From the IMG/VR virus record IMGVR_UViG_3300010429_000664, positions 1 to 64,000 of that record: a stretch of 64,000 nucleotides of DNA. One strand, given 5' to 3'. Origin of the DNA: a virus (taxonomy: Duplodnaviria; Caudoviricetes). This document shows positions 1,176 through 62,924 of the stretch, in pieces. Numbering within the stretch: the stretch's first letter is position 1; each line of letters opens with the position of its first letter. A program made the position numbers and the translations under genes. The notes under the pieces were generated by a model, which ran no database searches, was not told the DNA's origin, and saw only the letters and a program-made list of their open reading frames with translations.

Positions 1176-1382
1176 TCAGCTCCTTTCCAGTTGATTGTTT
1201 AGGGGATTAAAATACCGCACTGTTTCCCCGTGTTTATTTTTTGCGTATACCATAAAACGACCGTCCGCTTGTTTCCACACCTTAAATGACTTCATAGTTT
1301 GCCCAAAAAACTTCATTGTATTTCTGCTAAAAAAATATGGTGATGTTTCCCTCGTCCGCTCCTTTATCTCGTAAATCGTCAT
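1176..1382 (-). CDS. Hypothetical protein (68 aa, YFF..TMKFFG motif)
   Basis: ORF overlapping the stop of its upstream neighbour (coupled). Confidence 0.75.
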   Translation of the reverse strand: MTIYEIKERTRETSPYFFSRNTMKFFGQTMKSFKVWKQADGRFMVYAKNKHGETVRYFNPLNNQLERS

Positions 1383-1756
1383 ATTATCATCCTTTCATAT
1401 TGTGCTGAGTTTAACGTTGCATGATTGTCTTCCCCGTCATTAAAATATATCGTAATGATATGCTTGGAAGTTCCCACGACCACAATTAAATCCACGTTTT
1501 CGGAGTATTTAACGCGATAAACCGCGCGTTCGACCGCTCCGCCGTCCATATAATACTCAAAAACATTTTGCGCGTTTAACTGCATTCCCTTGATAAAACG
1601 AAGCACGTTTTCGATATTACCTGCCCGTTGAATTATATTATCAATACAGTGCTCGGTATACTTCCACGGGATGACGTTCATCCGTGCCGAAAAACTCTCT
1701 AAAACCTCCCTTGCATTGTTCGGAAAATAGACGTTTTTATGATATCGTTTTATCAT
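1379..1756 (-). CDS. Hypothetical protein (125 aa), possible RelE/BECR-like fold
   Basis: ORF; N-terminal His-bearing helix, beta-rich core and C-terminal H.TL..Y; fold call is inference. Confidence 0.6.
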   Translation of the reverse strand: MIKRYHKNVYFPNNAREVLESFSARMNVIPWKYTEHCIDNIIQRAGNIENVLRFIKGMQLNAQNVFEYYMDGGAVERAVYRVKYSENVDLIVVVGTSKHIITIYFNDGEDNHATLNSAQYERMII

Positions 1757-4500: not shown

Positions 4501-4662
4501 ATGAATGAAACCTTTGCAATAAGGACCACAATGGACCTAGAAGAATTGCGACAAAAGGCCATTAAACTTCGTAAATGGCTGGAGAAGATGGAAAATGGAA
4601 ACATTAGACTTAGAAACAGAAGTATTAGAAAGGTTCGAGGAAAGCGCAAAAATACCGGTTAG
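4501..4662 (+). CDS. Small basic protein
   Basis: ATG at 4501 after GGAGG; first ORF after the promoter. Confidence 0.55.
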   Translation: MNETFAIRTTMDLEELRQKAIKLRKWLEKMENGNIRLRNRSIRKVRGKRKNTG

Positions 4663-4747
4663 GAATATACCTGGATGGTTGTTAATTGCTATGCAGGAAA
4701 GTGGTATAAAAGATTTTACTAAGATACCGTAAACCAAAGGGGCGCTA

Positions 4748-6046
4748 ATGAAGAAGATATTTGTGATAGACACCAATGTGTTGCTGCATAATAGCGCGGC
4801 TTTGAAGGCTTTTGGTGATAATGAAGTTGTTATTCCTTTGTGTGTGTTGGAGGAGTTGGACACATTCAAAAAGGAGTCCAGTGATAGGGGTAGAAATTCG
4901 CGTGAGATAATACGTACATTGGATAAGATGAAAGAAGTAGGCAATCTGCGTAAGGGAGTAGATAACGGGCAGGGAGGAACCATCAAAATAGTATTACATC
5001 CTCCGGAAGAACGAGAATTGACACTTGACCGGTCTTTGGTTGATAATAAGATTCTGATACATGCTTACTACTTGACGAAACATAATCCAGATAAGAAGGT
5101 AGTGTTTATTTCTAAGGACATCAATGCTCGGATAAAGGCCGATGTTCTTGGAGTACATTCGGAAGACTACGAAGCGGAGCGAGTAGACTGCGATAGCTTG
5201 TACACTGGGTTTAAGACAATTGAAAATGATGAGATGTACGAGCATTTATCGGACCTACGATGGTGTGATGTCGAACCGGGATACCTCTATGCTAACGAGT
5301 ATATAGTGATTAAATCTTCATCTGGCGAGGACCCGGTTATAGGTAAGCATCTATATACGGAAAATAAAGTAGTAGCACTAGATGATGAGCAGATTAGACT
5401 TTGGGGAGTAACATCTAGAAGCATTGAACAGCGTATCGCGTTCGATATTCTACTTGACAAGGAAATAAAACTCGTTACCTTATCAGGACAGGCAGGAACG
5501 GGAAAAACACTGCTCGCGTTAGCGGCAGGGTTGGAATCCGTGGTAACAAAGAAGGTGTTTAGGAAAATACTTATTTCTAGACCTATTATGCCGCTGGGTA
5601 GAGATATTGGATACCTACCTGGGTCTAAGGAAGATAAGATAGAACATTGGATGAATCCGATATATGATAACATCGAGTTTATGCTATCGTCTAAGACTCC
5701 GGATGTTCAAACAAAAGTCTACAATATGTTTAAGGATGGCACTATTGAACTTGAAGCTCTAACGTATATTCGAGGAAGAAGTATTCCAAATCAATACGTT
5801 ATTATAGATGAAGCTCAGAATCTTTCTCCGCATGAGATTAAGACCATTATTTCTCGTGTTGGAGTAGGAACAAAGATGATACTTACTGGAGACCCTAATC
5901 AGATTGATAGTCCTTATCTTGATAGCGCTTCGAACGGTCTTACATACTGTGCCGAGAGATTAAAGAACGAACCTCTTCACGGACATATTACGTTATCAAA
6001 GAGCGAAAGGAGTCCGCTTGCTGCATTAGCGGCACAGAAACTTTAA
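4748..6046 (+). CDS. phoH: PhoH-family protein, PIN-PhoH (PhoH2/YlaK type)
   Basis: PIN motifs IDTNVLLH, LEELD, D..IL, ISKD; P-loop GQAGTGKT; RGRS, IDEAQN, GD..QID, RS.LA. Confidence 0.95.
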   Translation: MKKIFVIDTNVLLHNSAALKAFGDNEVVIPLCVLEELDTFKKESSDRGRNSREIIRTLDKMKEVGNLRKGVDNGQGGTIKIVLHPPEERELTLDRSLVDNKILIHAYYLTKHNPDKKVVFISKDINARIKADVLGVHSEDYEAERVDCDSLYTGFKTIENDEMYEHLSDLRWCDVEPGYLYANEYIVIKSSSGEDPVIGKHLYTENKVVALDDEQIRLWGVTSRSIEQRIAFDILLDKEIKLVTLSGQAGTGKTLLALAAGLESVVTKKVFRKILISRPIMPLGRDIGYLPGSKEDKIEHWMNPIYDNIEFMLSSKTPDVQTKVYNMFKDGTIELEALTYIRGRSIPNQYVIIDEAQNLSPHEIKTIISRVGVGTKMILTGDPNQIDSPYLDSASNGLTYCAERLKNEPLHGHITLSKSERSPLAALAAQKL

Positions 6047-6052
6047 TCAAAC

Positions 6053-6120
6053 GCGGCGCGTGAGAGTTCGAGTCTCTCCTTGAACCTGCGGACAAGTAGC
6101 TCAATCGGCAGAGCAGCCGC
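6053..6120 (+). ncRNA. Circularly permuted tRNA-like RNA (YrlA/Y-RNA-like tRNA mimic)
   Basis: GCGGC(6053-57)/GCCGC(6116-20) closing helix; T-arm GAGAG-TTCGAGT-CTCTC precedes D-arm GCTC-AATCGGCA-GAGC; acceptor-like CTTG..CC/GG..CAAG closed by a TGC loop. Confidence 0.75.
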
Positions 6121-6370
6121 ATTATTGTTAGCACTACAGAAACTCGTCTTCTAGAAAACGAGGAGCATCAGAGAAGAGTGAGGATTCCCGCTCATTTTAG
6201 GCGGACCGGAAAACGCCCTAACGGTGCAAGTGATATTAGCCTGGAGTGCTTTACTTTTATCGCGTCCGATTAATCGTGTAACGACAGTGGCCACTGATGA
6301 ATAGTCGGATTGCAAATAGGGGGTAGTGATGTTACTAAAATTAGGTCGCTCCTAATTTAGAAACTATTCC
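6121..6370 (+). ncRNA. Unclassified multi-branched structured RNA
   Basis: Nested helices: AGCACT-CAG/CTG-AGTGCT, CTCGT/ACGAG, TTAGGCG/CGCCCTAA, TCCGATTA/TAGTCGGA, CAGTG/CACTG, AAATTAGG/CCTAATTT, AATAG/CTATT; no credible ORF. Confidence 0.55.
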
Positions 6371-6379
6371 TCGGATTTT

Positions 6380-6453
6380 TGCGCGGTAGTGAAACGGTAT
6401 CACGGAAGGCTCATAATCTTCAATTGGGAGTTCGATTCTCCCCTGCGCTACCA
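6380..6453 (+). tRNA. tRNA with CAT anticodon (Met or Ile2), CCA encoded
   Basis: Cloverleaf: TGCGCGG/CTGCGCT acceptor, GAAGG-CTCATAA-TCTTC anticodon arm, GGGAG-TTCGATT-CTCCC T-arm, ACCA end. Confidence 0.9.
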
Positions 6454-6487
6454 AAGGTACGGTCGGAGGAAAGTAAAGAGGAAGAAG

Positions 6488-6883
6488 ATGAGTACGAAGA
6501 AAAAGGAACTTATCTGGAGATTATCATCGAAGGTCACTGTAGAAGAAGTTCTAAAACTACTCGACCATAAGATAATAAACTCCGAGGAAGCAAGGGAACT
6601 TATTTTCAGGATTGAAGAAGAAAAGAAACTAACCCCCGACGCAGAGAAGGACCTAAAGGACGAATTAAAACTTCTAAGAGACTTGGTGTTAGAGCTTTGT
6701 AAAAAGAATATTGCAATAGCTCCATATGTTATCAGAGAGGTTGAAATTTATCCTCGACAGAGATGGGCAGAACCTTATTACGTTTGGTGTAGTTCTGTTA
6801 GTCCTTCTATTAATTTAAACGGAAATGGCTTTTACTCAGGTAGCGTAAGTTATAGTAATTTGGATAACAACAGTCAAGTATAA
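6488..6883 (+). CDS. Hypothetical protein (probable start MSTKKKELIW)
   Basis: ORF; the longer track start overlaps the tRNA, so ATG 6488 is preferred. Confidence 0.7.
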   Translation: MSTKKKELIWRLSSKVTVEEVLKLLDHKIINSEEARELIFRIEEEKKLTPDAEKDLKDELKLLRDLVLELCKKNIAIAPYVIREVEIYPRQRWAEPYYVWCSSVSPSINLNGNGFYSGSVSYSNLDNNSQV

Positions 6884-7532: not shown

Positions 7533-10376
7533 ATGCTGGAAAAAATCACGGAAGAAGAATTAAATTTTCTCGAATGTTGGTTTTATCCTATAGCCAACGC
7601 CGAATGTCTTTTCTCCGACTTCGACAATCTATCTGAGTTCGACGAATCGCGCCTGGGCGAAATGCGATTATATCAATATCCAATGCTTTCTTACGAAGCT
7701 ATCGTTGACGATATCACACCTAAAGTTACCGCCAAGACTAAATTTAAATGGCATAAGATGTTAGGAGATGGATTCAACTTTGGCGCTCGTAAATACGGCA
7801 AATGCGAAAAATCCGATTCATTATGTTTGTTATCTGACGGAACATATCATCCATATAGCGAATTAGTAAACACAGAACGTTCGGTCTTTTGTTTAGATGA
7901 GAATACTCAAAAAATAACTTCGGCTTTAGCCAGATTTGCAAATAATGGTGTTAAAGAATGTTTTCGAGTTGAACTTAAAACCGGAAAATATATCGAAATT
8001 ACTTCAAATCATCCTCTTCTTACAAATTACGGATGGAAAACAGTCGAAGAACTGATTTTCAATAAAGAGGTATTAATTGCGACTCCTAACTGTATACCTT
8101 GTTGCGGAATAATAGAACCTTCCAAAAATTTAGCCAAACTTTTAGGTTATTTACTCGGAGATGGAGGAACATCAATACCAAACGCAGTCTCATTTACAAA
8201 TATAAATGCAGAAATTATTAAAGAATATCACGAAATAGCGGATTACTTTAATTGTAAAGTAAGATTTGACGGCGATTGTGGTTATCATGTTAGTAAGAAA
8301 GACTATCAAAAATCGGGATATGAAAAAGGAGTTGGAATTATTCGTGGAGAAGGTCATAAACTTAATGTCATATCTGAAATAGTTATTAAATACGGAATAG
8401 ATAAACTCGCAAAAAATAAAACAATCCCAGAGGAAATATTTAGTTGGAAAAATGAATATATAGCAATTCTTCTGAATCGCTTATTTGCTTGTGACGGGCA
8501 TATTAATAAACTCTCTCGTCAGATAGAAATAGTTTTAGCATCAAAGAAAATGATTTATCAAATTTCTTCGCTTCTCTTACGTTTCGGAATAAGAGGTCGT
8601 ATTTATTATAAACCTGTTATATTGAAAGGTAAAAAATTTGACTCTTGGAGATATACAATATCTCAGGATTTTAATAAGTTTTTGGATATAGTCGGAATCA
8701 AGTCCAAGGACGATGGATTTCGTATTAACTCTACTTATAGTACGGGAGATGTTATTCCGAATAATTATTACTATAAAATTCATCCAACGCTTCCAAATAA
8801 GAAAAAATACCGATTAAACAGTTTTAAAAACTATCATCCGTCTAAAGAAAAACTCTCTCGATTAAACAAGATATTTAAGAACGCTGATATAGACAAATTA
8901 TTAAACAGTGATATATATTGGGATAAAATAAAATCTATTATCAGTATAGGTTTACATCCAACAGTTATAGTAGAAGTTAACAATCATCATAACTACATCT
9001 CAAACGATATTTTTTCTCACAACAGTCTTATATGCTTAAAACTTGATATACCCCTATCTCTTCTCTATGACGACAAGTGTTGGTGTGGAATGACTTCCAC
9101 TGACGCGATACATATAGACGGCATACTTGATAGCGTAAAAGATGCGGCAGAAAACCATCCTATTTTAAAATACTGGAAAAAACAAATTCATAAAACTCCG
9201 AAGTGGTCTTTCATAGGAAAAAACGGGTGGTTACTTGACGGAGTGAATATGAATATTTTGTCGAAAAATCCCGGCCATCAATTTTACGGAAAACATTTTA
9301 GAAAACTTTTCGGCGAAGAAATGTCACACGAAAATGATAAAGTTTTTGAAAAACGCAAAGACGCTTTATCAGAACTGGGGGCGGTATTTCGTTTCTCTGG
9401 AATGACCAACTTCACTAGACACTCTCCAGCAGGTAAGGTATTTTACGACCCAAAGAATAAAGTGCATGTAATTAACTATCCGCAGTTTGTTAATCCTACA
9501 TTTGACGAAGATGAAAAACAAGAGCGTATTAAACAATACGGTGGGATGGATTCGATTGGATTTAAAGTCTTTGTTCGTGGTAAGGTCGTAGAGGACGGAG
9601 TTTCTTCTTTTGATATGGAACGGGTAAGTAGATGTTACAACGAAGACCAAGAAATAAAACGGTTTGAAATTCCCAAAGACAAATTCTCTACATACGATAC
9701 TCGGATTATAGTCGAAAGACCTAAAAACGCTACCAATGTTTACGTGGTTGGAGACGTTGGAGATGGTTCTGGAGGCTCGGAAATTCTAGTTATATCTGAA
9801 TCCGGAGAAAAATATAATTATCTATATAATATAACGCTGTACAACTTAACTCATTCTCAGCAAGAAGAAATTTTTAAATGGATAATAGGACAAGTTCAGG
9901 CCAATATAATAGCAATAGACTGCGGAGATGCTCTAGGAAGAACTTTATGCGACGGTCTTGAAAAATGCTACGGTAAGGAACGTGTAGTGCGTTACGCTGG
10001 AACGAGTAAAGTTAAGATAGACTTTGAAAAAGACGATAAGGGCAATGTTTTAATGAAAGACGGCCAGCCGGTCTATCGGGAGGAGTTCGAAAGTGAATTT
10101 GCGGTCCATCGTCTAAAACACTTGCTATATGAGGGAAAAATTAATATTCCATTAGACTTTAAATTTGACGCTCAGTTTTCGTCAGTTATGTCATTGCAGT
10201 TATCCAATCGAACAGTTTATAAATGTGTCAGTGAACGAGACCACTTATTTGACGCTTTTCGTGTTTTTGCTATCGCCGAGTGGATAAAAAAATCGTTTGT
10301 ATCGCAGCCAATTAAAAATCAAAACTGGGGAACGGGAGCCTGTAATTGGAAACGTCCGCCAAGAAAGGAGGAATAG
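7533..10376 (+). CDS. terL: Terminase large subunit, intein-containing
   Basis: Walker A GARKYGK^S (split by intein), Walker B FGEE, RNaseH-like nuclease acids VVGDVG, IAIDCG, DHLFDAFR. Confidence 0.85.
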   Translation: MLEKITEEELNFLECWFYPIANAECLFSDFDNLSEFDESRLGEMRLYQYPMLSYEAIVDDITPKVTAKTKFKWHKMLGDGFNFGARKYGKCEKSDSLCLLSDGTYHPYSELVNTERSVFCLDENTQKITSALARFANNGVKECFRVELKTGKYIEITSNHPLLTNYGWKTVEELIFNKEVLIATPNCIPCCGIIEPSKNLAKLLGYLLGDGGTSIPNAVSFTNINAEIIKEYHEIADYFNCKVRFDGDCGYHVSKKDYQKSGYEKGVGIIRGEGHKLNVISEIVIKYGIDKLAKNKTIPEEIFSWKNEYIAILLNRLFACDGHINKLSRQIEIVLASKKMIYQISSLLLRFGIRGRIYYKPVILKGKKFDSWRYTISQDFNKFLDIVGIKSKDDGFRINSTYSTGDVIPNNYYYKIHPTLPNKKKYRLNSFKNYHPSKEKLSRLNKIFKNADIDKLLNSDIYWDKIKSIISIGLHPTVIVEVNNHHNYISNDIFSHNSLICLKLDIPLSLLYDDKCWCGMTSTDAIHIDGILDSVKDAAENHPILKYWKKQIHKTPKWSFIGKNGWLLDGVNMNILSKNPGHQFYGKHFRKLFGEEMSHENDKVFEKRKDALSELGAVFRFSGMTNFTRHSPAGKVFYDPKNKVHVINYPQFVNPTFDEDEKQERIKQYGGMDSIGFKVFVRGKVVEDGVSSFDMERVSRCYNEDQEIKRFEIPKDKFSTYDTRIIVERPKNATNVYVVGDVGDGSGGSEILVISESGEKYNYLYNITLYNLTHSQQEEIFKWIIGQVQANIIAIDCGDALGRTLCDGLEKCYGKERVVRYAGTSKVKIDFEKDDKGNVLMKDGQPVYREEFESEFAVHRLKHLLYEGKINIPLDFKFDAQFSSVMSLQLSNRTVYKCVSERDHLFDAFRVFAIAEWIKKSFVSQPIKNQNWGTGACNWKRPPRKEE
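7803..9023 (+). mobile_element. Intein (407 aa) with LAGLIDADG homing endonuclease in TerL Walker A
   Basis: Begins Cys, block B TSNHPLL, LLGYLLGDGG and LNRLFACDG motifs, ends His-Asn before Ser. Confidence 0.95.
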
Positions 10377-10768: not shown

Positions 10769-10798
10769 TTGACACGAACCGTCTTTGTATGCTATAAT
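10769..10798 (+). promoter_or_regulatory. Sigma70-type promoter upstream of the portal gene
   Basis: TTGACACGAA, 18-nt spacer, TGnTATAAT. Confidence 0.85.
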
Positions 10799-10856
10799 AT
10801 ATATAAGGCATAAAGTGTGCCTATTTTATTTATTTTACATACAAACGGAGTAATCT

Positions 10857-16779: not shown

Positions 16780-16787
16780 AATAGTAC

Positions 16788-16817
16788 TTGACACGAACAT
16801 ATGAAGTATGTTATAAT
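16788..16817 (+). promoter_or_regulatory. Sigma70-type promoter
   Basis: TTGACACGAA, 18-nt spacer, TGnTATAAT. Confidence 0.85.
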
Positions 16818-16861
16818 ATATATAGGCAATAAGTGTGTTTATATTTGATTTTGGAGTTTAG

Positions 16862-21314: not shown

Positions 21315-21330
21315 TTCCACAAATTAACGA

Positions 21331-21360
21331 TTGACACAGAATAACGAAAGATGTTATAAT
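21331..21360 (+). promoter_or_regulatory. Sigma70-type promoter
   Basis: TTGACAC, 18-nt spacer, TGnTATAAT. Confidence 0.85.
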
Positions 21361-21395
21361 AGATACGAACAAAAAACTAACTTGGAAAGATAAAA

Positions 21396-30724: not shown

Positions 30725-30749
30725 CACCAATCGTAAATTTTGTTATAAT
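30721..30749 (+). promoter_or_regulatory. Sigma70-type promoter
   Basis: TTGACAC, 17-nt spacer, TGnTATAAT. Confidence 0.8.
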
Positions 30750-30789
30750 AGATATGTACATTTATATTTTCTAGGAAAGGAGAAATTAT

Positions 30790-52167: not shown

Positions 52168-55100
52168 TCACTCATCTTCGGCATCTCCTTCTTTTACTTT
52201 TATACCAAATTCTTTAAGTAGGTCTGCCTTCCATCCCAAAGCCACGAAGATTTTCTCGATTTTTGTGTGAATATTACGCGATATCATTTTTGGCCAATTA
52301 ACCTTTGCCGTCTCAATATGTGAAAAGCACTCGTCATCGAATGCAAGCACGTCTTTTTTAGTAGTAACTGATTTGACTAGAGATTTTAATTCGTATTTAT
52401 TTAAATCTCCGTTTCCTTTCATCAATTCTTTCTTATCAGCTATAGTGCATTTTTTACCTGTATCTTTATTAAAATACCAAGGCATCTCAACTTCTTCTGT
52501 TACTGAACCTCCATCTGCGTAGATATAATAAAACGAGGAACCGCTGACCGGTTTAAATTCAGGCGTGTTATCGATTGCCCGCAAAAAAATCGGCACGTTC
52601 TTATATGCCTCCCGTGGTTTACTAATCTTGCAGGGAAAGGCGACGTTTGACAACGGCTCCTCGGTTATTTTCTTTTCCTGTTCTTTTATCCACGCTATTA
52701 TTTCTCCCTTGGGTTTATCATTTAGAATTAGTTCAATCAATTCTGTCTGAAATTTTTTCATAAACGTTGAACTATTTCCACTCCAATACGATTTTCCGTT
52801 TCTCATTACAAAAATAGTATGATGAGGTTCAACTTCTACACAATATATTTTTCCTTTATAATATTTGGTTTTTATTTTGTGAGGTTCTATCGTAAAAAAC
52901 TTGTTTGAATTTTCCGATATTTTATAATGTATTCCTCCTACATTTGCCCAATGGTCTACAATCCATTTTTGATGGGGTTCTACTATAATACGCTGTATTG
53001 TTGCGCTTATACCGGTTTTGCAAATAATTTCGTGAAGGTCGTGAGCCATCTGTTTGCTACTAGTAGTATAGAATTTTTGATTGTTGATAATATAACCATC
53101 TCCAGCGCAATAGGCATCCAATAATATTTGAAGCAAATCAGGACTGGCTTGTTTTGCATACGTTGGAATTAATTTATTTTCTGCGTGTTTACCATATTTG
53201 TTTAATTCCAACGCTAAAAGTTTATCTTTTATTTGATATTTTGTTTCCTCTTTATCTCTATAAAAATAAATACCTAATTTCAAAAGCAGTTTTTCAATTT
53301 GTCTGCACTTGTCAGGATTGGCGTTTTCTGATTGTGCTATATCTATTTCATAGATATTTTTTTGTTCGTTTATATAGACGTTTCCCTCACTTAAATACCA
53401 ACCGAGCAATTCGAACCAATCCGAAAGGTCTATAGATTTTTCGTTGTATTGTCGGCGTACCAATCCGGTTAAAGTAATTTTACTACCTAAATTTACTCCG
53501 GTCCATTTAAAATATTTCTGAGATGTGAAAACTGTTTTGGTGTGTTTGATATCTTTAATTGACTTAAATTTGTCGTGGTCGTTTTGAGAGTATTGGGCGG
53601 TTCTTTGGAGAAACTGGTGATTTGGTGTCACACAGAAATCTACGGATGTATTGTTGTAATTAAACATCGTTCCGGTATAATCTTCGCAAATTATTTTTTT
53701 AATCGGGTAATAATCCGCTAAATTAGTATGTGGATTTAAACTAAGCACCTTATCGTTTAAGGTCAAATCTTTAAACAAAGTCCATCCTTTATCAGTTAAA
53801 ACTTTAGTTTGACCGTCGAAACAGTCCTTGCGTTTCATTTCCACGCCTTTTACAACCTTTTTCAGTTCTCCCTTCTCATTACGCAAGTATCCTACATATC
53901 GGCACTTAGCTAGAATTAATATCTTTTCAAAAACGCCTTCATACGCGAACTGAATATTGACTTCTGGTTTTCCAAAAGTTTGGCCCCATTCTTTTATGAG
54001 GTTGTTCATTAGGTCGGTTAAATTGTCGTTTGAACAGACGTATACGCTATCCGTATCTATATATAGAACTTCGTATCCCTTTTCGGCAAGTTTGTCTTGT
54101 ACAAAATGCAATAGACTTCTGACTAGCCATGTCGTTCCTCCTGCTACATTTAAATCAAAAAGTCTAAAGAATCGCATACCAAACGTGCCATAATGAGCAT
54201 TCACGCACGATTTAATAGCAGCATATCGTATTTCATTTTCTTTATATTCGGGAGTATCGACCGCGCACGATTCTAAATCGTTTTTAATTTTCGACTTCAA
54301 TTGAACTGCCTTCCTCATAATTGTAGGCAGTAGGGCTTTGTCATTTTGCTTAAACCATACGTCGTTTATTTTTATACAACCTTCTTCGTATACTTGCCTC
54401 ACGTTGGCCGGGTCTAGACAGAAATTTATAATAGCCCAGGGATAAGCAGAGCCAATGTCAAATGCTGAAATCCCGTTAAACTTTCCGGTTTTAAACGCAA
54501 CTCGATAAGCTCCTTCAAACTCTTGTCGCTCTTCGTCTTCATTAACAACCGGTTTATTAGGTAGAACAACCTTCTGCTGTTTAGCTTCCATAAGTAACAA
54601 ATTATCTACTACTCGGCTGTAGAAAGTCATAGACTCCCAATCTACTTTGCTAAGTCGTCTTATTTCATCGTGAAACTCCACCAGTTTAAACTTATTTTCT
54701 AGATTCATTAGGATTTGAACGTCTTCTTGATTACGATACTTAACCTCATCGGATATTTTATTAAAATCGACTTTAGAAAAGGTTTTACCAACTCCAAGAT
54801 GTTTTTTTGCAATATGGTCAAGTGTATACTGTTCTTCTTTATTAAGCGTTATTTTTTTAAACCAACTCAGATAATCAACTATGGAAGTTCCTATTGGGTA
54901 CATTACTCCGTCTTTTCCGTATCGAGATTTGCCGACCGGACTAATAGCCTCTGCAAACGACTTTGACTTACGAACACCAAATAGACGTTCCCATCTAGCA
55001 GACAGATACGGTATATCGAAATCAATATTCCATGCCATTAATATGTCAAACGCTTCTAGTTTCAAGTATTCGGCAAATGATTGAAGCATTAACTCTTCAT

Positions 55101-55533
55101 CGTTGTTGAATTCAGGAAGAAAAAAGGTCGTTATCTCATCACAAAAATTTGAAATCACTGATATGCAGGATATCTTGAATTTAGGATTTTCAGCGGAAGG
55201 TAATTCGGAACACTTCATTTCTACGTCAAAAAAACCGAATTTAATCGCGGTCTTATCTAGAGTATCTACTTTGTCTATTAAGTATCTTTGTGGAAAGCTC
55301 ACGTCACTTTCATAAGCGTCGTGACCGGCAGATTTACGCATTTCATTTGGGTCTCCTCCTAGTATTTTACGAAGAGGTTGGCCGGTGTAGGATTTGCAAG
55401 TTCCTGTGGAAGCGTAGGATACGTAATAGTATGGATAGAAGTCGTTTACTTCCTCTATCGATTGTACACCATTCGAGTCGCGTTTAAAAATATATAGCAA
55501 ACGCTTATCATTGTGCAAATTGACAATGTTCAT
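52168..55533 (-). CDS. polB: Family B DNA polymerase, intein-containing
   Basis: Exo motifs FFDVE, AWNIDFD, Y...D; polymerase motifs D..SAYP, K..VNAHYG, YIDTDS, KGVE. Confidence 0.93.
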   Translation of the reverse strand: MNIVNLHNDKRLLYIFKRDSNGVQSIEEVNDFYPYYYVSYASTGTCKSYTGQPLRKILGGDPNEMRKSAGHDAYESDVSFPQRYLIDKVDTLDKTAIKFGFFDVEMKCSELPSAENPKFKISCISVISNFCDEITTFFLPEFNNDEELMLQSFAEYLKLEAFDILMAWNIDFDIPYLSARWERLFGVRKSKSFAEAISPVGKSRYGKDGVMYPIGTSIVDYLSWFKKITLNKEEQYTLDHIAKKHLGVGKTFSKVDFNKISDEVKYRNQEDVQILMNLENKFKLVEFHDEIRRLSKVDWESMTFYSRVVDNLLLMEAKQQKVVLPNKPVVNEDEERQEFEGAYRVAFKTGKFNGISAFDIGSAYPWAIINFCLDPANVRQVYEEGCIKINDVWFKQNDKALLPTIMRKAVQLKSKIKNDLESCAVDTPEYKENEIRYAAIKSCVNAHYGTFGMRFFRLFDLNVAGGTTWLVRSLLHFVQDKLAEKGYEVLYIDTDSVYVCSNDNLTDLMNNLIKEWGQTFGKPEVNIQFAYEGVFEKILILAKCRYVGYLRNEKGELKKVVKGVEMKRKDCFDGQTKVLTDKGWTLFKDLTLNDKVLSLNPHTNLADYYPIKKIICEDYTGTMFNYNNTSVDFCVTPNHQFLQRTAQYSQNDHDKFKSIKDIKHTKTVFTSQKYFKWTGVNLGSKITLTGLVRRQYNEKSIDLSDWFELLGWYLSEGNVYINEQKNIYEIDIAQSENANPDKCRQIEKLLLKLGIYFYRDKEETKYQIKDKLLALELNKYGKHAENKLIPTYAKQASPDLLQILLDAYCAGDGYIINNQKFYTTSSKQMAHDLHEIICKTGISATIQRIIVEPHQKWIVDHWANVGGIHYKISENSNKFFTIEPHKIKTKYYKGKIYCVEVEPHHTIFVMRNGKSYWSGNSSTFMKKFQTELIELILNDKPKGEIIAWIKEQEKKITEEPLSNVAFPCKISKPREAYKNVPIFLRAIDNTPEFKPVSGSSFYYIYADGGSVTEEVEMPWYFNKDTGKKCTIADKKELMKGNGDLNKYELKSLVKSVTTKKDVLAFDDECFSHIETAKVNWPKMISRNIHTKIEKIFVALGWKADLLKEFGIKVKEGDAEDE
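52774..53823 (-). mobile_element. Intein (350 aa) with LAGLIDADG endonuclease in PolB
   Basis: Begins CFDGQT, block B VTPNHQF, LLGWYLSEG and LDAYCAGDG, block F YCVEV, ends Gly-Asn before Ser. Confidence 0.9.
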
Positions 55534-61713: not shown

Positions 61714-61789
61714 TGGCGACCCGGGACGGATTCGAACCGTCGCCCTCCCCCGTGTAAGGGGCTGTTCTTGCTAATTAAACTACCGGGCC
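61714..61789 (-). tRNA. tRNA, probably Val(TAC), with an irregular anticodon arm; CCA encoded
   Basis: GGCCCGG/CCGGGTC acceptor, GTTT/GAAC D-stem, CCC-CTTACAC-GGG, GACGG-TTCGAAT-CCGTC. Confidence 0.8.
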
Positions 61790-61795
61790 AGTCTT

Positions 61796-61824
61796 ATATT
61801 AGCATATTATAGAGTTGGTGTCAA
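61796..61824 (-). promoter_or_regulatory. Sigma70-type promoter for the tRNA
   Basis: TTGACAC, 17-nt spacer, TGnTAATAT, a few nt upstream of the tRNA 5' end. Confidence 0.7.
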
Positions 61825-62924
61825 TGAAATTCTGTACCGCCTTTTCTAAGCAAATAGTTTTCCGACACTAATTTTAGAATTTTTCTACCCAGTCTAACGT
61901 CCGTTTTTTCATTCTGCGGTTTAATAACTATGCCCTCGCGCATCTGAGTAGGGCAGATAACAGACATACCAGTACGCAGTTCCTTGAGTTCTTCCTTCCA
62001 CGGTCCACTATAGAGCATCGGCACTTCGGGCAAATCTAATCTGAGACATATCGCGTGAAATTCCGTACAATCTAAATATGTGCCGTTGGGATGTTTAATA
62101 TCAAAAAATGCTACCGTAGGTTCCTTAACCCCATAAGTAAGGTCTTGTATATTTGGTCCATATATCTCACCGTAAAAGATATATCCGGGGTATAGTTTTA
62201 ATTTCTCGATGAGGTTATATTTTTTAACTGTTTTTCCCCATACGTCAGTGCCGTAGAAGCCTTTACGAATATTTAACGGGTGTTTTTGACAGTTGTGTGA
62301 CCCATATACGAACTCATAAGGTTTAGTGAAATACTTCAAAACGGGTATAGTATTGGTTTTTTTTAGATAACCAAAACGTGCGTTTGTTCCGTGCAGTTTT
62401 TCCGTAATTATAACTATCTCGTTATCAAATATTTTAGGATAATGCTTGAAATTCTCAATATCTGTGTATTTAGTAAATAGTTCGTTACTACGTTTCGCAC
62501 TAAAACAGCGTTTAAATCGATATTTTATATACTGCAATAGGTTGCTTGGTTTACTCTTTGTTTGTGGCTCTGGAGGGGCTTCTGGTTCGTATTTCGTTAT
62601 GCCTAGCGCTGTAGCAACATCCGTTCCAACTGGTTTTCTAACTATATTTGGAATAATTAGGCCGTAACTTACTACACCGCGAATTTTGGCGGCTCTAATG
62701 CGGTTTGGGATGTAATTTTGGCCTATTTTCAGGTCCAGGCGTTGAATAAGTTCGTCCGGCAATACTGAGTCTATCGGAATATAAATAACTTCATCTCCGG
62801 CCTTATGAACACCTTTGCCAACTACGCATATCCAGTCATTTATTCGCGCAAGGTCCAAACGCTCCGCATTTTCGTGTTTCAATATCTCGTCAATTTTTAC
62901 GACTTCCACTTTAAGAGAACTCAT
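61821..62924 (-). CDS. ATP-dependent RNA ligase (DRB0094/Rnl5 family)
   Basis: N-terminal OB-like H.NA.RL.L..I..W..VV.K; motifs TEKLHGTN, YGEIYG, FFDI, EGIVIK, LK.VS..YL. Confidence 0.9.
   Translation of the reverse strand: MSSLKVEVVKIDEILKHENAERLDLARINDWICVVGKGVHKAGDEVIYIPIDSVLPDELIQRLDLKIGQNYIPNRIRAAKIRGVVSYGLIIPNIVRKPVGTDVATALGITKYEPEAPPEPQTKSKPSNLLQYIKYRFKRCFSAKRSNELFTKYTDIENFKHYPKIFDNEIVIITEKLHGTNARFGYLKKTNTIPVLKYFTKPYEFVYGSHNCQKHPLNIRKGFYGTDVWGKTVKKYNLIEKLKLYPGYIFYGEIYGPNIQDLTYGVKEPTVAFFDIKHPNGTYLDCTEFHAICLRLDLPEVPMLYSGPWKEELKELRTGMSVICPTQMREGIVIKPQNEKTDVRLGRKILKLVSENYLLRKGGTEFH

Follow-up and report, generated by a model that had tools for sequence, protein, structure and literature searches.

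Evidence for a conserved structured RNA, composed of a permuted tRNA mimic and a new fold, behind the PIN-PhoH gene of a rare phage lineage

Background

Does the 441-bp gap between the PIN-PhoH gene of a phage and its block of structural genes (6047–6487) give rise to a non-coding RNA of its own and, if so, where does this RNA begin and end and what may it do? The DNA analysed here, called the window, covers the first 64 kb of an IMG/VR phage contig of 90,065 bp with an estimated completeness of 98%. An initial annotation had proposed for 6121–6370 a 250-nt RNA of three domains (a, b and c) between a tRNA mimic and a tRNA(CAT) gene; together with the mimic it was thought to form one undescribed RNA of about 320 nt, released from the downstream tRNA by RNase P. 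The three sets of stems indeed exist in the sequence: in domain a 6130–6135 and 6137–6139 pair with 6241–6243 and 6245–6250, in domain b 6265–6272 pair with 6302–6309 and in domain c 6315–6319 with 6364–6368. Comparison with a related phage leads to a shorter molecule, which includes the mimic and ends behind domain a.

Results and discussion

Genomic setting

The features of the locus are compiled in Table 1. The short reading frame in front of the PIN-PhoH gene has no Pfam match and is reminiscent of the small gene that has been described upstream of mycobacterial PhoH2. Downstream, the gap is followed by a 131-aa ORF, the first of the structural gene block. At the gathering thresholds of Rfam two tRNAs were found in the whole window and nothing else. 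The tRNA-Met gene of the gap has a mismatch at pair 1–72 (U/U in the window, C/A in the tRNA-Met of the related phage, L016 5507–5583). Such a mismatch is a mark of the bacterial initiator tRNA; the anticodon stem of the tRNA in the window lacks the three G-C pairs.

Table 1. Features of the PIN-PhoH/tRNA-Met locus in window coordinates.
Feature	Position	Strand	Basis and remarks
45-aa ORF	4595–4732	+	directly upstream of PIN-PhoH gene; 53% identity with L016 counterpart; context only
PIN-PhoH (PhoH2-type) gene	4748–6046	+	Pfam PIN_4 4.6e-33, PhoH 6.5e-48; synteny with L016
Permuted tRNA mimic	6053–6120	+	stems read from sequence; Rfam YrlA 25.2 bits; covariation in closing stem
Mimic, closing stem	6053–6057/6116–6120	+	2 of 5 pairs covary with L016
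Mimic, T arm	6062–6078	+	read from sequence
Mimic, closed acceptor-like hairpin	6079–6096	+	read from sequence
Mimic, D arm	6099–6114	+	read from sequence
Linker mimic/domain a	6121–6129	+	last six bases the same in L016 (alignment)
Domain a, conserved new fold	6130–6250	+	RNAalifold, identity, compensatory pairs, simulation
P1 helix	6130–6139/6241–6250	+	one A/G mismatch; RNAalifold
Joiner between P1 and P2	3 nt	+	RNAalifold
P2 hairpin	6143–6162	+	10-nt loop; RNAalifold
P5 inner helix, encloses P3 and P4	6165–6169/6223–6227	+	RNAalifold
P3 hairpin	6176–6193	+	RNAalifold
P4 hairpin	6197–6221	+	one base bulged; RNAalifold
Conserved single strand, 13 nt	6228–6240	+	RNAalifold
Six-base tail 3' of P1	6251–6256	+	identical in L016; end of conserved unit
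Spacer with hairpin sets b (6264–6310) and c (6315–6368)	6257–6379	+	not conserved in L016
tRNA-Met (CAT)	6380–6453	+	ARAGORN; Rfam tRNA 56.7 bits; CCA end encoded; pair 1–72 mismatched

The strong late-type promoter of this phage is absent from 6047–6487 and is present at four other gaps. It appears as a promoter-like motif, TTGACAC followed by a spacer and an extended TATAATAT box, ahead of structural genes, with sites in the window at about 10790–10830, 16785–16825, 21330–21365 and 30740–30760.

In an activated-sludge RNA library of another study, a 520-nt contig corresponds to 5844–6363 at 100% identity. The phage thus occurs in a second study, and the contig would agree with a single transcript extending from the PIN-PhoH gene across the RNA; it shows neither strand, ends nor level, and DNA carry-over is possible.

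Comparison with a related phage delimits the conserved unit

A search with the PIN-PhoH protein yielded a single phage-like relative, here called L016, which is 73% identical; L017 and L018 are identical copies of this contig from other runs. All remaining matches, at 65% identity or less, were bacterial wherever they were looked up. In L016 the mimic and domain a follow directly after the PIN-PhoH stop codon (5014–5244, aligning with window 6053–6256), and the distance from stop codon to RNA is 8 nt there and 6 nt in the window. Domain a is identical at 98 of 122 positions (80%), and the unpaired positions (47/56, 84%) are included in this as well as the paired ones (51/66). The PIN-PhoH genes themselves are 67% identical at the DNA level and 39% at third codon positions, and the next gene has 44% protein identity. 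Neutral sites must therefore be near saturation, and the RNA block has nonetheless been held.

The similarity ends behind domain a. Between 6256–6379 and the matching stretch of L016 the local alignment score is 18, compared with 16.1 +/- 2.2 for shuffled sequences, of which 67 out of 300 scored as high. Judged by these alignments, the conserved unit comprises the tRNA mimic and domain a and measures about 205 nt (6053–6256), and 6257–6379 is an unconserved, lineage-specific spacer. That 6053–6256 are the limits of a real conserved structured RNA appears very probable to us.

In L016 the conserved block is followed by two enlarged tRNA-like genes, a spacer, tRNA-Met and a tRNA with the anticodon AAA. 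The two enlarged genes (5247–5329, Rfam tRNA 48 bits, with 17 nt where 6 are expected; 5336–5440, with an insert of about 30 nt) are not called by ARAGORN and could be intron-bearing or non-canonical tRNAs. We also considered that domains b and c might have arisen by decay from copies of these two genes; no significant similarity was found. The first of them starts 8 nt after the last helix of domain a, so that RNase P could make the 3' end of the RNA there. For L016 the earlier idea of a release by RNase P is thus plausible; in the window, for which it had been put forward, the tRNA lies 124 nt beyond the unit.

Of the single RNA of about 320 nt, in which a, b and c would act together, little remains. 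All of its stems exist, 6256–6379 fold somewhat better than shuffled sequences (z -1.96) and the RNA-library contig extends through b and c to 6363; but L016 lacks any counterpart of b and c, in contrast to a with its 80% identity. We therefore regard such a molecule as highly improbable. What stands of the original proposal is an undescribed RNA joined to the mimic, consisting of domain a without b and c.

Fold and covariation of domain a

A structure with 39 pairs was derived for domain a with RNAalifold from the sequences of the window and L016. Seven of its pairs are compensatory: two each in P2 and P4 and one each in P1, P3 and P5. Together with two in the closing stem of the mimic, nine changes affect both sides of a pair and still allow pairing; all of these counts come from two independent sequences, the window and L016, which are too few for statistics of R-scape grade. 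A hand-drawn structure of domain a was 98.6% paired, and this value dropped to 30–46% when the partners were slid by 1–3 columns. As a control for circularity, we folded the window sequence by itself and then scored the placement of the 23 differences in L016. Five pairs of this fold were compensated, a number reached by 3 of 100,000 random placements (P about 3e-5), and the three broken pairs fall in helices mispredicted by the single-sequence fold. P3 and P5 contain U-G/G-U pairs where the opposite strand would give A-C mismatches, which makes the plus strand the RNA. A minus-strand terminator at 6162–6143 was rejected, as the same bases form P2 on the plus strand with covariation. Coding potential was not found in the region of domain a, where none of six frames is open or shared between the phages; a small peptide was dismissed because of stop codons in all frames.

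The folding energy by itself does not distinguish this RNA. For 6121–6370 it is no better than that of shuffled sequences (plus strand z -0.74, with 44 of 200 shuffles folding as well; minus strand z -0.54), and domain a alone reaches z -1.21. This counts against the 250-nt molecule as initially drawn; for domain a, the covariation overrides it.

Domain a matches no family of Rfam: its fold is new and absent from this catalogue. With cmscan at E <= 10 over 5950–6520, only two chance-level matches (12.4 and 11.4 bits, both on the minus strand) were obtained inside 6121–6370, and no model for hammerhead, group I, RNase P, tmRNA (also permuted), ROOL or GOLLD matched. None of the echoes noticed before, those of RNase P, group I and hammerhead motifs, forms a complete motif. 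The only tRNA match (RF00005) at E <= 10 is 6380–6450; in 6121–6379 there is no cloverleaf by this model, nor does ARAGORN find a tRNA or a tmRNA. A permuted tmRNA with its stop codon in the P2 loop was also discarded: besides the missing ARAGORN and Rfam matches, the acceptor-like stem has two mismatches, a CCA is not encoded and this part is unconserved in L016. Likewise, a hammerhead core in domain b lacks stem II and is missing from L016. Two short motifs resemble those of the hairpin ribozyme, but a fit of the helices is lacking and none of the models gave a match. In both phages ACAGAAA is located directly 3' of a 6-bp stem, and the CAG of this motif is paired.

The permuted tRNA mimic and its relation to YrlA

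In the mimic, T arm, sealed acceptor hairpin, D arm and closing stem have the same order as in the Y RNA YrlA (RF02553; PMC4201824; bioRxiv 10.1101/312249). The closing stem reads GCGGC/GCCGC in the window and CCGGU/ACCGG in L016, that is, two double changes. In the T stem there are two further ones; the two outer pairs are missing from L016, which keeps 3 of 5. The elbow is fixed and the acceptor-like part varies, from a 4-bp hairpin in the window to two hairpins in L016. A fixed elbow with a variable acceptor-like part has also been reported for YrlA in the paper on its crystal structure (bioRxiv 10.1101/312249). D arm and T loop of the mimic are close to the YrlA consensus as well.

With cmscan 6061–6114 aligns to positions 30–81 of the YrlA model at 25.2 bits and the L016/L018 sequence scores 20.2 bits, both below the gathering threshold of 69. 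Weak YrlA matches are also obtained where one ordinary tRNA follows another, and controls gave matches in 13 of 14 genomes at E <= 10; therefore the score alone proves little. It is the covarying closing stem, not the YrlA score, which marks the element as a real permuted module. Model positions 1–29 and 82–114, the Ro60-binding stem, remain unaligned in the window, and the flanks of the mimic (6035–6052 and 6121–6140) show no complementarity. A Ro60/TROVE gene (PF05731) was not detected in the 90-kb, 98%-complete genome, DUF2828 (PF11443) had no match at E <= 1 in it, and among 49 ORFs scanned with Pfam no Ro60-like or other known RNA-chaperone domain was present. The RNA thus has the YrlA shape of the tRNA-like module and differs from YrlA in score, in the Ro60-binding stem and in the Ro60 neighbour. 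Both RNAs are modular and both are found in phages and beside tRNA genes; in YrlA a stem encloses the mimic, whereas here a 121-nt multi-helix module is placed on its 3' side.

Could the RNA be a true member of the YrlA family, using a Ro60/Rsr protein of the host? The order of the modules and the sequences of D arm and T loop would agree with this, and Y RNAs do occur in phages and beside tRNA genes (PMC4201824). However, the scores of both phages lie far below the threshold, the Ro60-binding stem is unmatched, with non-complementary flanks, and the phage has no TROVE gene. Hence we consider this an improbable solution.

Palindromic loops

Two loops of domain a are palindromic. That of P2 contains the same 8-nt palindrome, UUCUAGAA, in both phages. 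The sequence of the P4 loop differs between them and is palindromic in each, with CCGG (4 nt) in the window and UCCUAGGA (8 nt) in L016. Shuffling with preserved composition gave such loop palindromes in 3%, 6.6% and 1.7% of trials, values which are indicative only, as the test was picked after the loops had been seen. The palindromic loops cannot fold on themselves. By analogy, this suggests that they may suit loop-loop contacts between copies of the RNA or the attachment of a dimeric protein; within one molecule, the P2 and the P4 loop might also contact each other. ROOL, GOLLD and OLE RNAs self-assemble via loop-loop contacts (PMC12286853). These RNAs resemble the one described here in being structured, uncatalogued in function, of phage or bacterial origin and often located near tRNA genes. 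The phage RNA is three to four times smaller, has no sequence or Rfam match to them, and its self-assembly is a prediction from the two palindromic loops.

Distribution of the RNA

The search for further homologs remained negative. Exact and degenerate motif scans of viral contigs gave no further copy, nor did two scans of genome contigs, and a scan of metagenome contigs led to one chance match within a dnaJ-like gene. In a blastn search against 50,697 phage records tRNA-Met was matched and nothing else. With a covariance model (R1), applied to 46 sources and later to six more loci, the window and L016 alone scored. The RNA was absent from the loci of PhoH relatives at 38–55% identity, from those of the relatives of a 203-aa protein and from those fetched via the family of the 131-aa protein (377 members by HMMER). 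One sequencing run (X3) contained tRNA-like and tRNA parts only, in contexts unlike that of the window. Summarizing, the carriers of this RNA are a rare phage lineage.

Bacterial PIN-PhoH homologs at 64–65% identity have an ordinary long-arm tRNA downstream, and the RNA is absent. In these relatives (L019–L023) the gene lies beside RNase HII, SmpB and tmRNA, and one close match belongs to Candidatus Ancaeobacter aquaticus. The sequence similarity hints at a host lineage and at capture of the gene from it.

Possible functions

The explanation which accounts best for these observations, and which we would give about an even chance, is a two-module RNA at 6053–6256 with a Y-RNA-like modular design. 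Module 1 would be an inside-out tRNA, made of T arm, sealed acceptor hairpin, D arm and a 5-bp closing stem, which keeps the tRNA elbow and has neither an anticodon loop nor a free CCA end. Module 2, domain a, would consist of a closing helix, the hairpin with the 10-nt loop, the inner helix with its two hairpins and the 13-nt strand. The RNA would share a transcript with PIN-PhoH upstream and the tRNA downstream and probably be excised by the tRNA-processing machinery. The elbow might then serve as bait for a tRNA-binding protein, and domain a may bind another partner or, by way of its self-complementary loops, link copies of the RNA to each other. A trans-acting role for such an RNA, as an adaptor or decoy resembling Y RNAs, is a tentative and somewhat doubtful extension, drawn by analogy with YrlA (PMC4201824; bioRxiv 10.1101/312249). 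Against a trans-acting two-module RNA speak the unremarkable folding energy, the missing TROVE and DUF2828 genes and the reduced T stem of L016. Moreover, a role in cis for the upstream mRNA would give the same pattern of conservation. In this case the block would be a 3' UTR or processing module, which ends the PIN-PhoH message, blocks 3' exonucleases and guides the cuts between mRNA and tRNA without any function in trans. Its start right behind the stop codon in both phages, its position between mRNA and tRNA genes, the RNA-library contig linking the end of the gene to the block and the lack of the late-type promoter from the gap all agree with a cis module. But protection requires stable helices, not the observed identity of unpaired positions; a precise tRNA elbow, complete with YrlA-like D arm, would be dispensable for it as well, and the thermodynamic stability is ordinary. 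For these reasons a purely cis-acting element appears unlikely to us.

The partner of a trans-acting RNA might be sought next door. PhoH2 proteins are described as RNA helicase-nucleases with toxin-antitoxin traits in a passage of PMC7824862 which cites Andrews and Arcus, and PIN toxins of the VapC type cleave initiator tRNA (PMC4105405). The elbow mimic could occupy the tRNA site of the PIN domain and, for want of an anticodon loop, would stay uncut, so that the RNA would work as an inhibitor, an antitoxin-like regulator or a targeting adaptor of PIN-PhoH. The gene is directly upstream in both RNA-bearing phages, PhoH was found in none of 37 loci of more distant relatives and the RNA in none of those searched with the model, and the adjacent tRNA has the mismatch typical for initiators. 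However, eight other phage PIN-PhoH or PhoH loci as well as the bacterial homologs do without the RNA, and its co-occurrence with the gene (n = 2) probably goes back to one inheritance event, which makes it a lead and not a correlation. A partnership with PIN-PhoH is accordingly a quite unlikely reading, and the same small chance is given to the more specific version, a dedicated uncleavable tRNA decoy which gates or aims PIN-PhoH, perhaps as a dimer self-associated via the two palindromic loops. As a lead, the functional tie to PIN-PhoH is nevertheless the strongest one.

Other RNA-related genes of the phage

Several further genes concerned with RNA, or otherwise unusual, were observed. An RNA ligase gene (61821–62924, minus strand; Pfam RNA_ligase 2.9e-21) lies beside an odd tRNA-Cys with the anticodon ACA (61714–61789, minus strand). 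The anticodon of this tRNA begins with A, as does that of the AAA tRNA of L016 (5584–5656); an A at the first anticodon position is unusual in bacteria. A 125-aa early protein (1379–1756, minus strand) weakly matches the T4 endoribonuclease RegB (E 1.8e-4, which does not reach the Pfam cut-off), and the phage has a DUF1571 protein at G000 68016–68834. Intein or LAGLIDADG inserts occur in the gene of a 947-aa protein (7533–10376, plus strand), located after the RNA locus, and in the family B DNA polymerase gene (52168–55533, minus strand).

Conclusion

To our knowledge, tRNA mimics of the YrlA type have so far been described solely in Y RNAs bound by Ro60, of which they form the effector end. 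Here such a mimic is joined to another well-conserved module, in a phage without Ro60 and directly behind the gene of an RNA helicase-nuclease. An elbow mimic in a non-Ro60 setting suggests a portable part that different ribonucleoproteins share, and the RNA offers a second context in which its partner can be sought. With 121 nt, domain a is small enough for direct structural work. Should the RNA prove to be a decoy for PIN-PhoH, no earlier RNA regulator would be known for the PhoH2 family, and the YrlA-type tRNA mimic would have a use that does not depend on Ro60. Phages very commonly carry genes of the PhoH family, whose role is a question of long standing; an RNA linked to PhoH would make this question testable.
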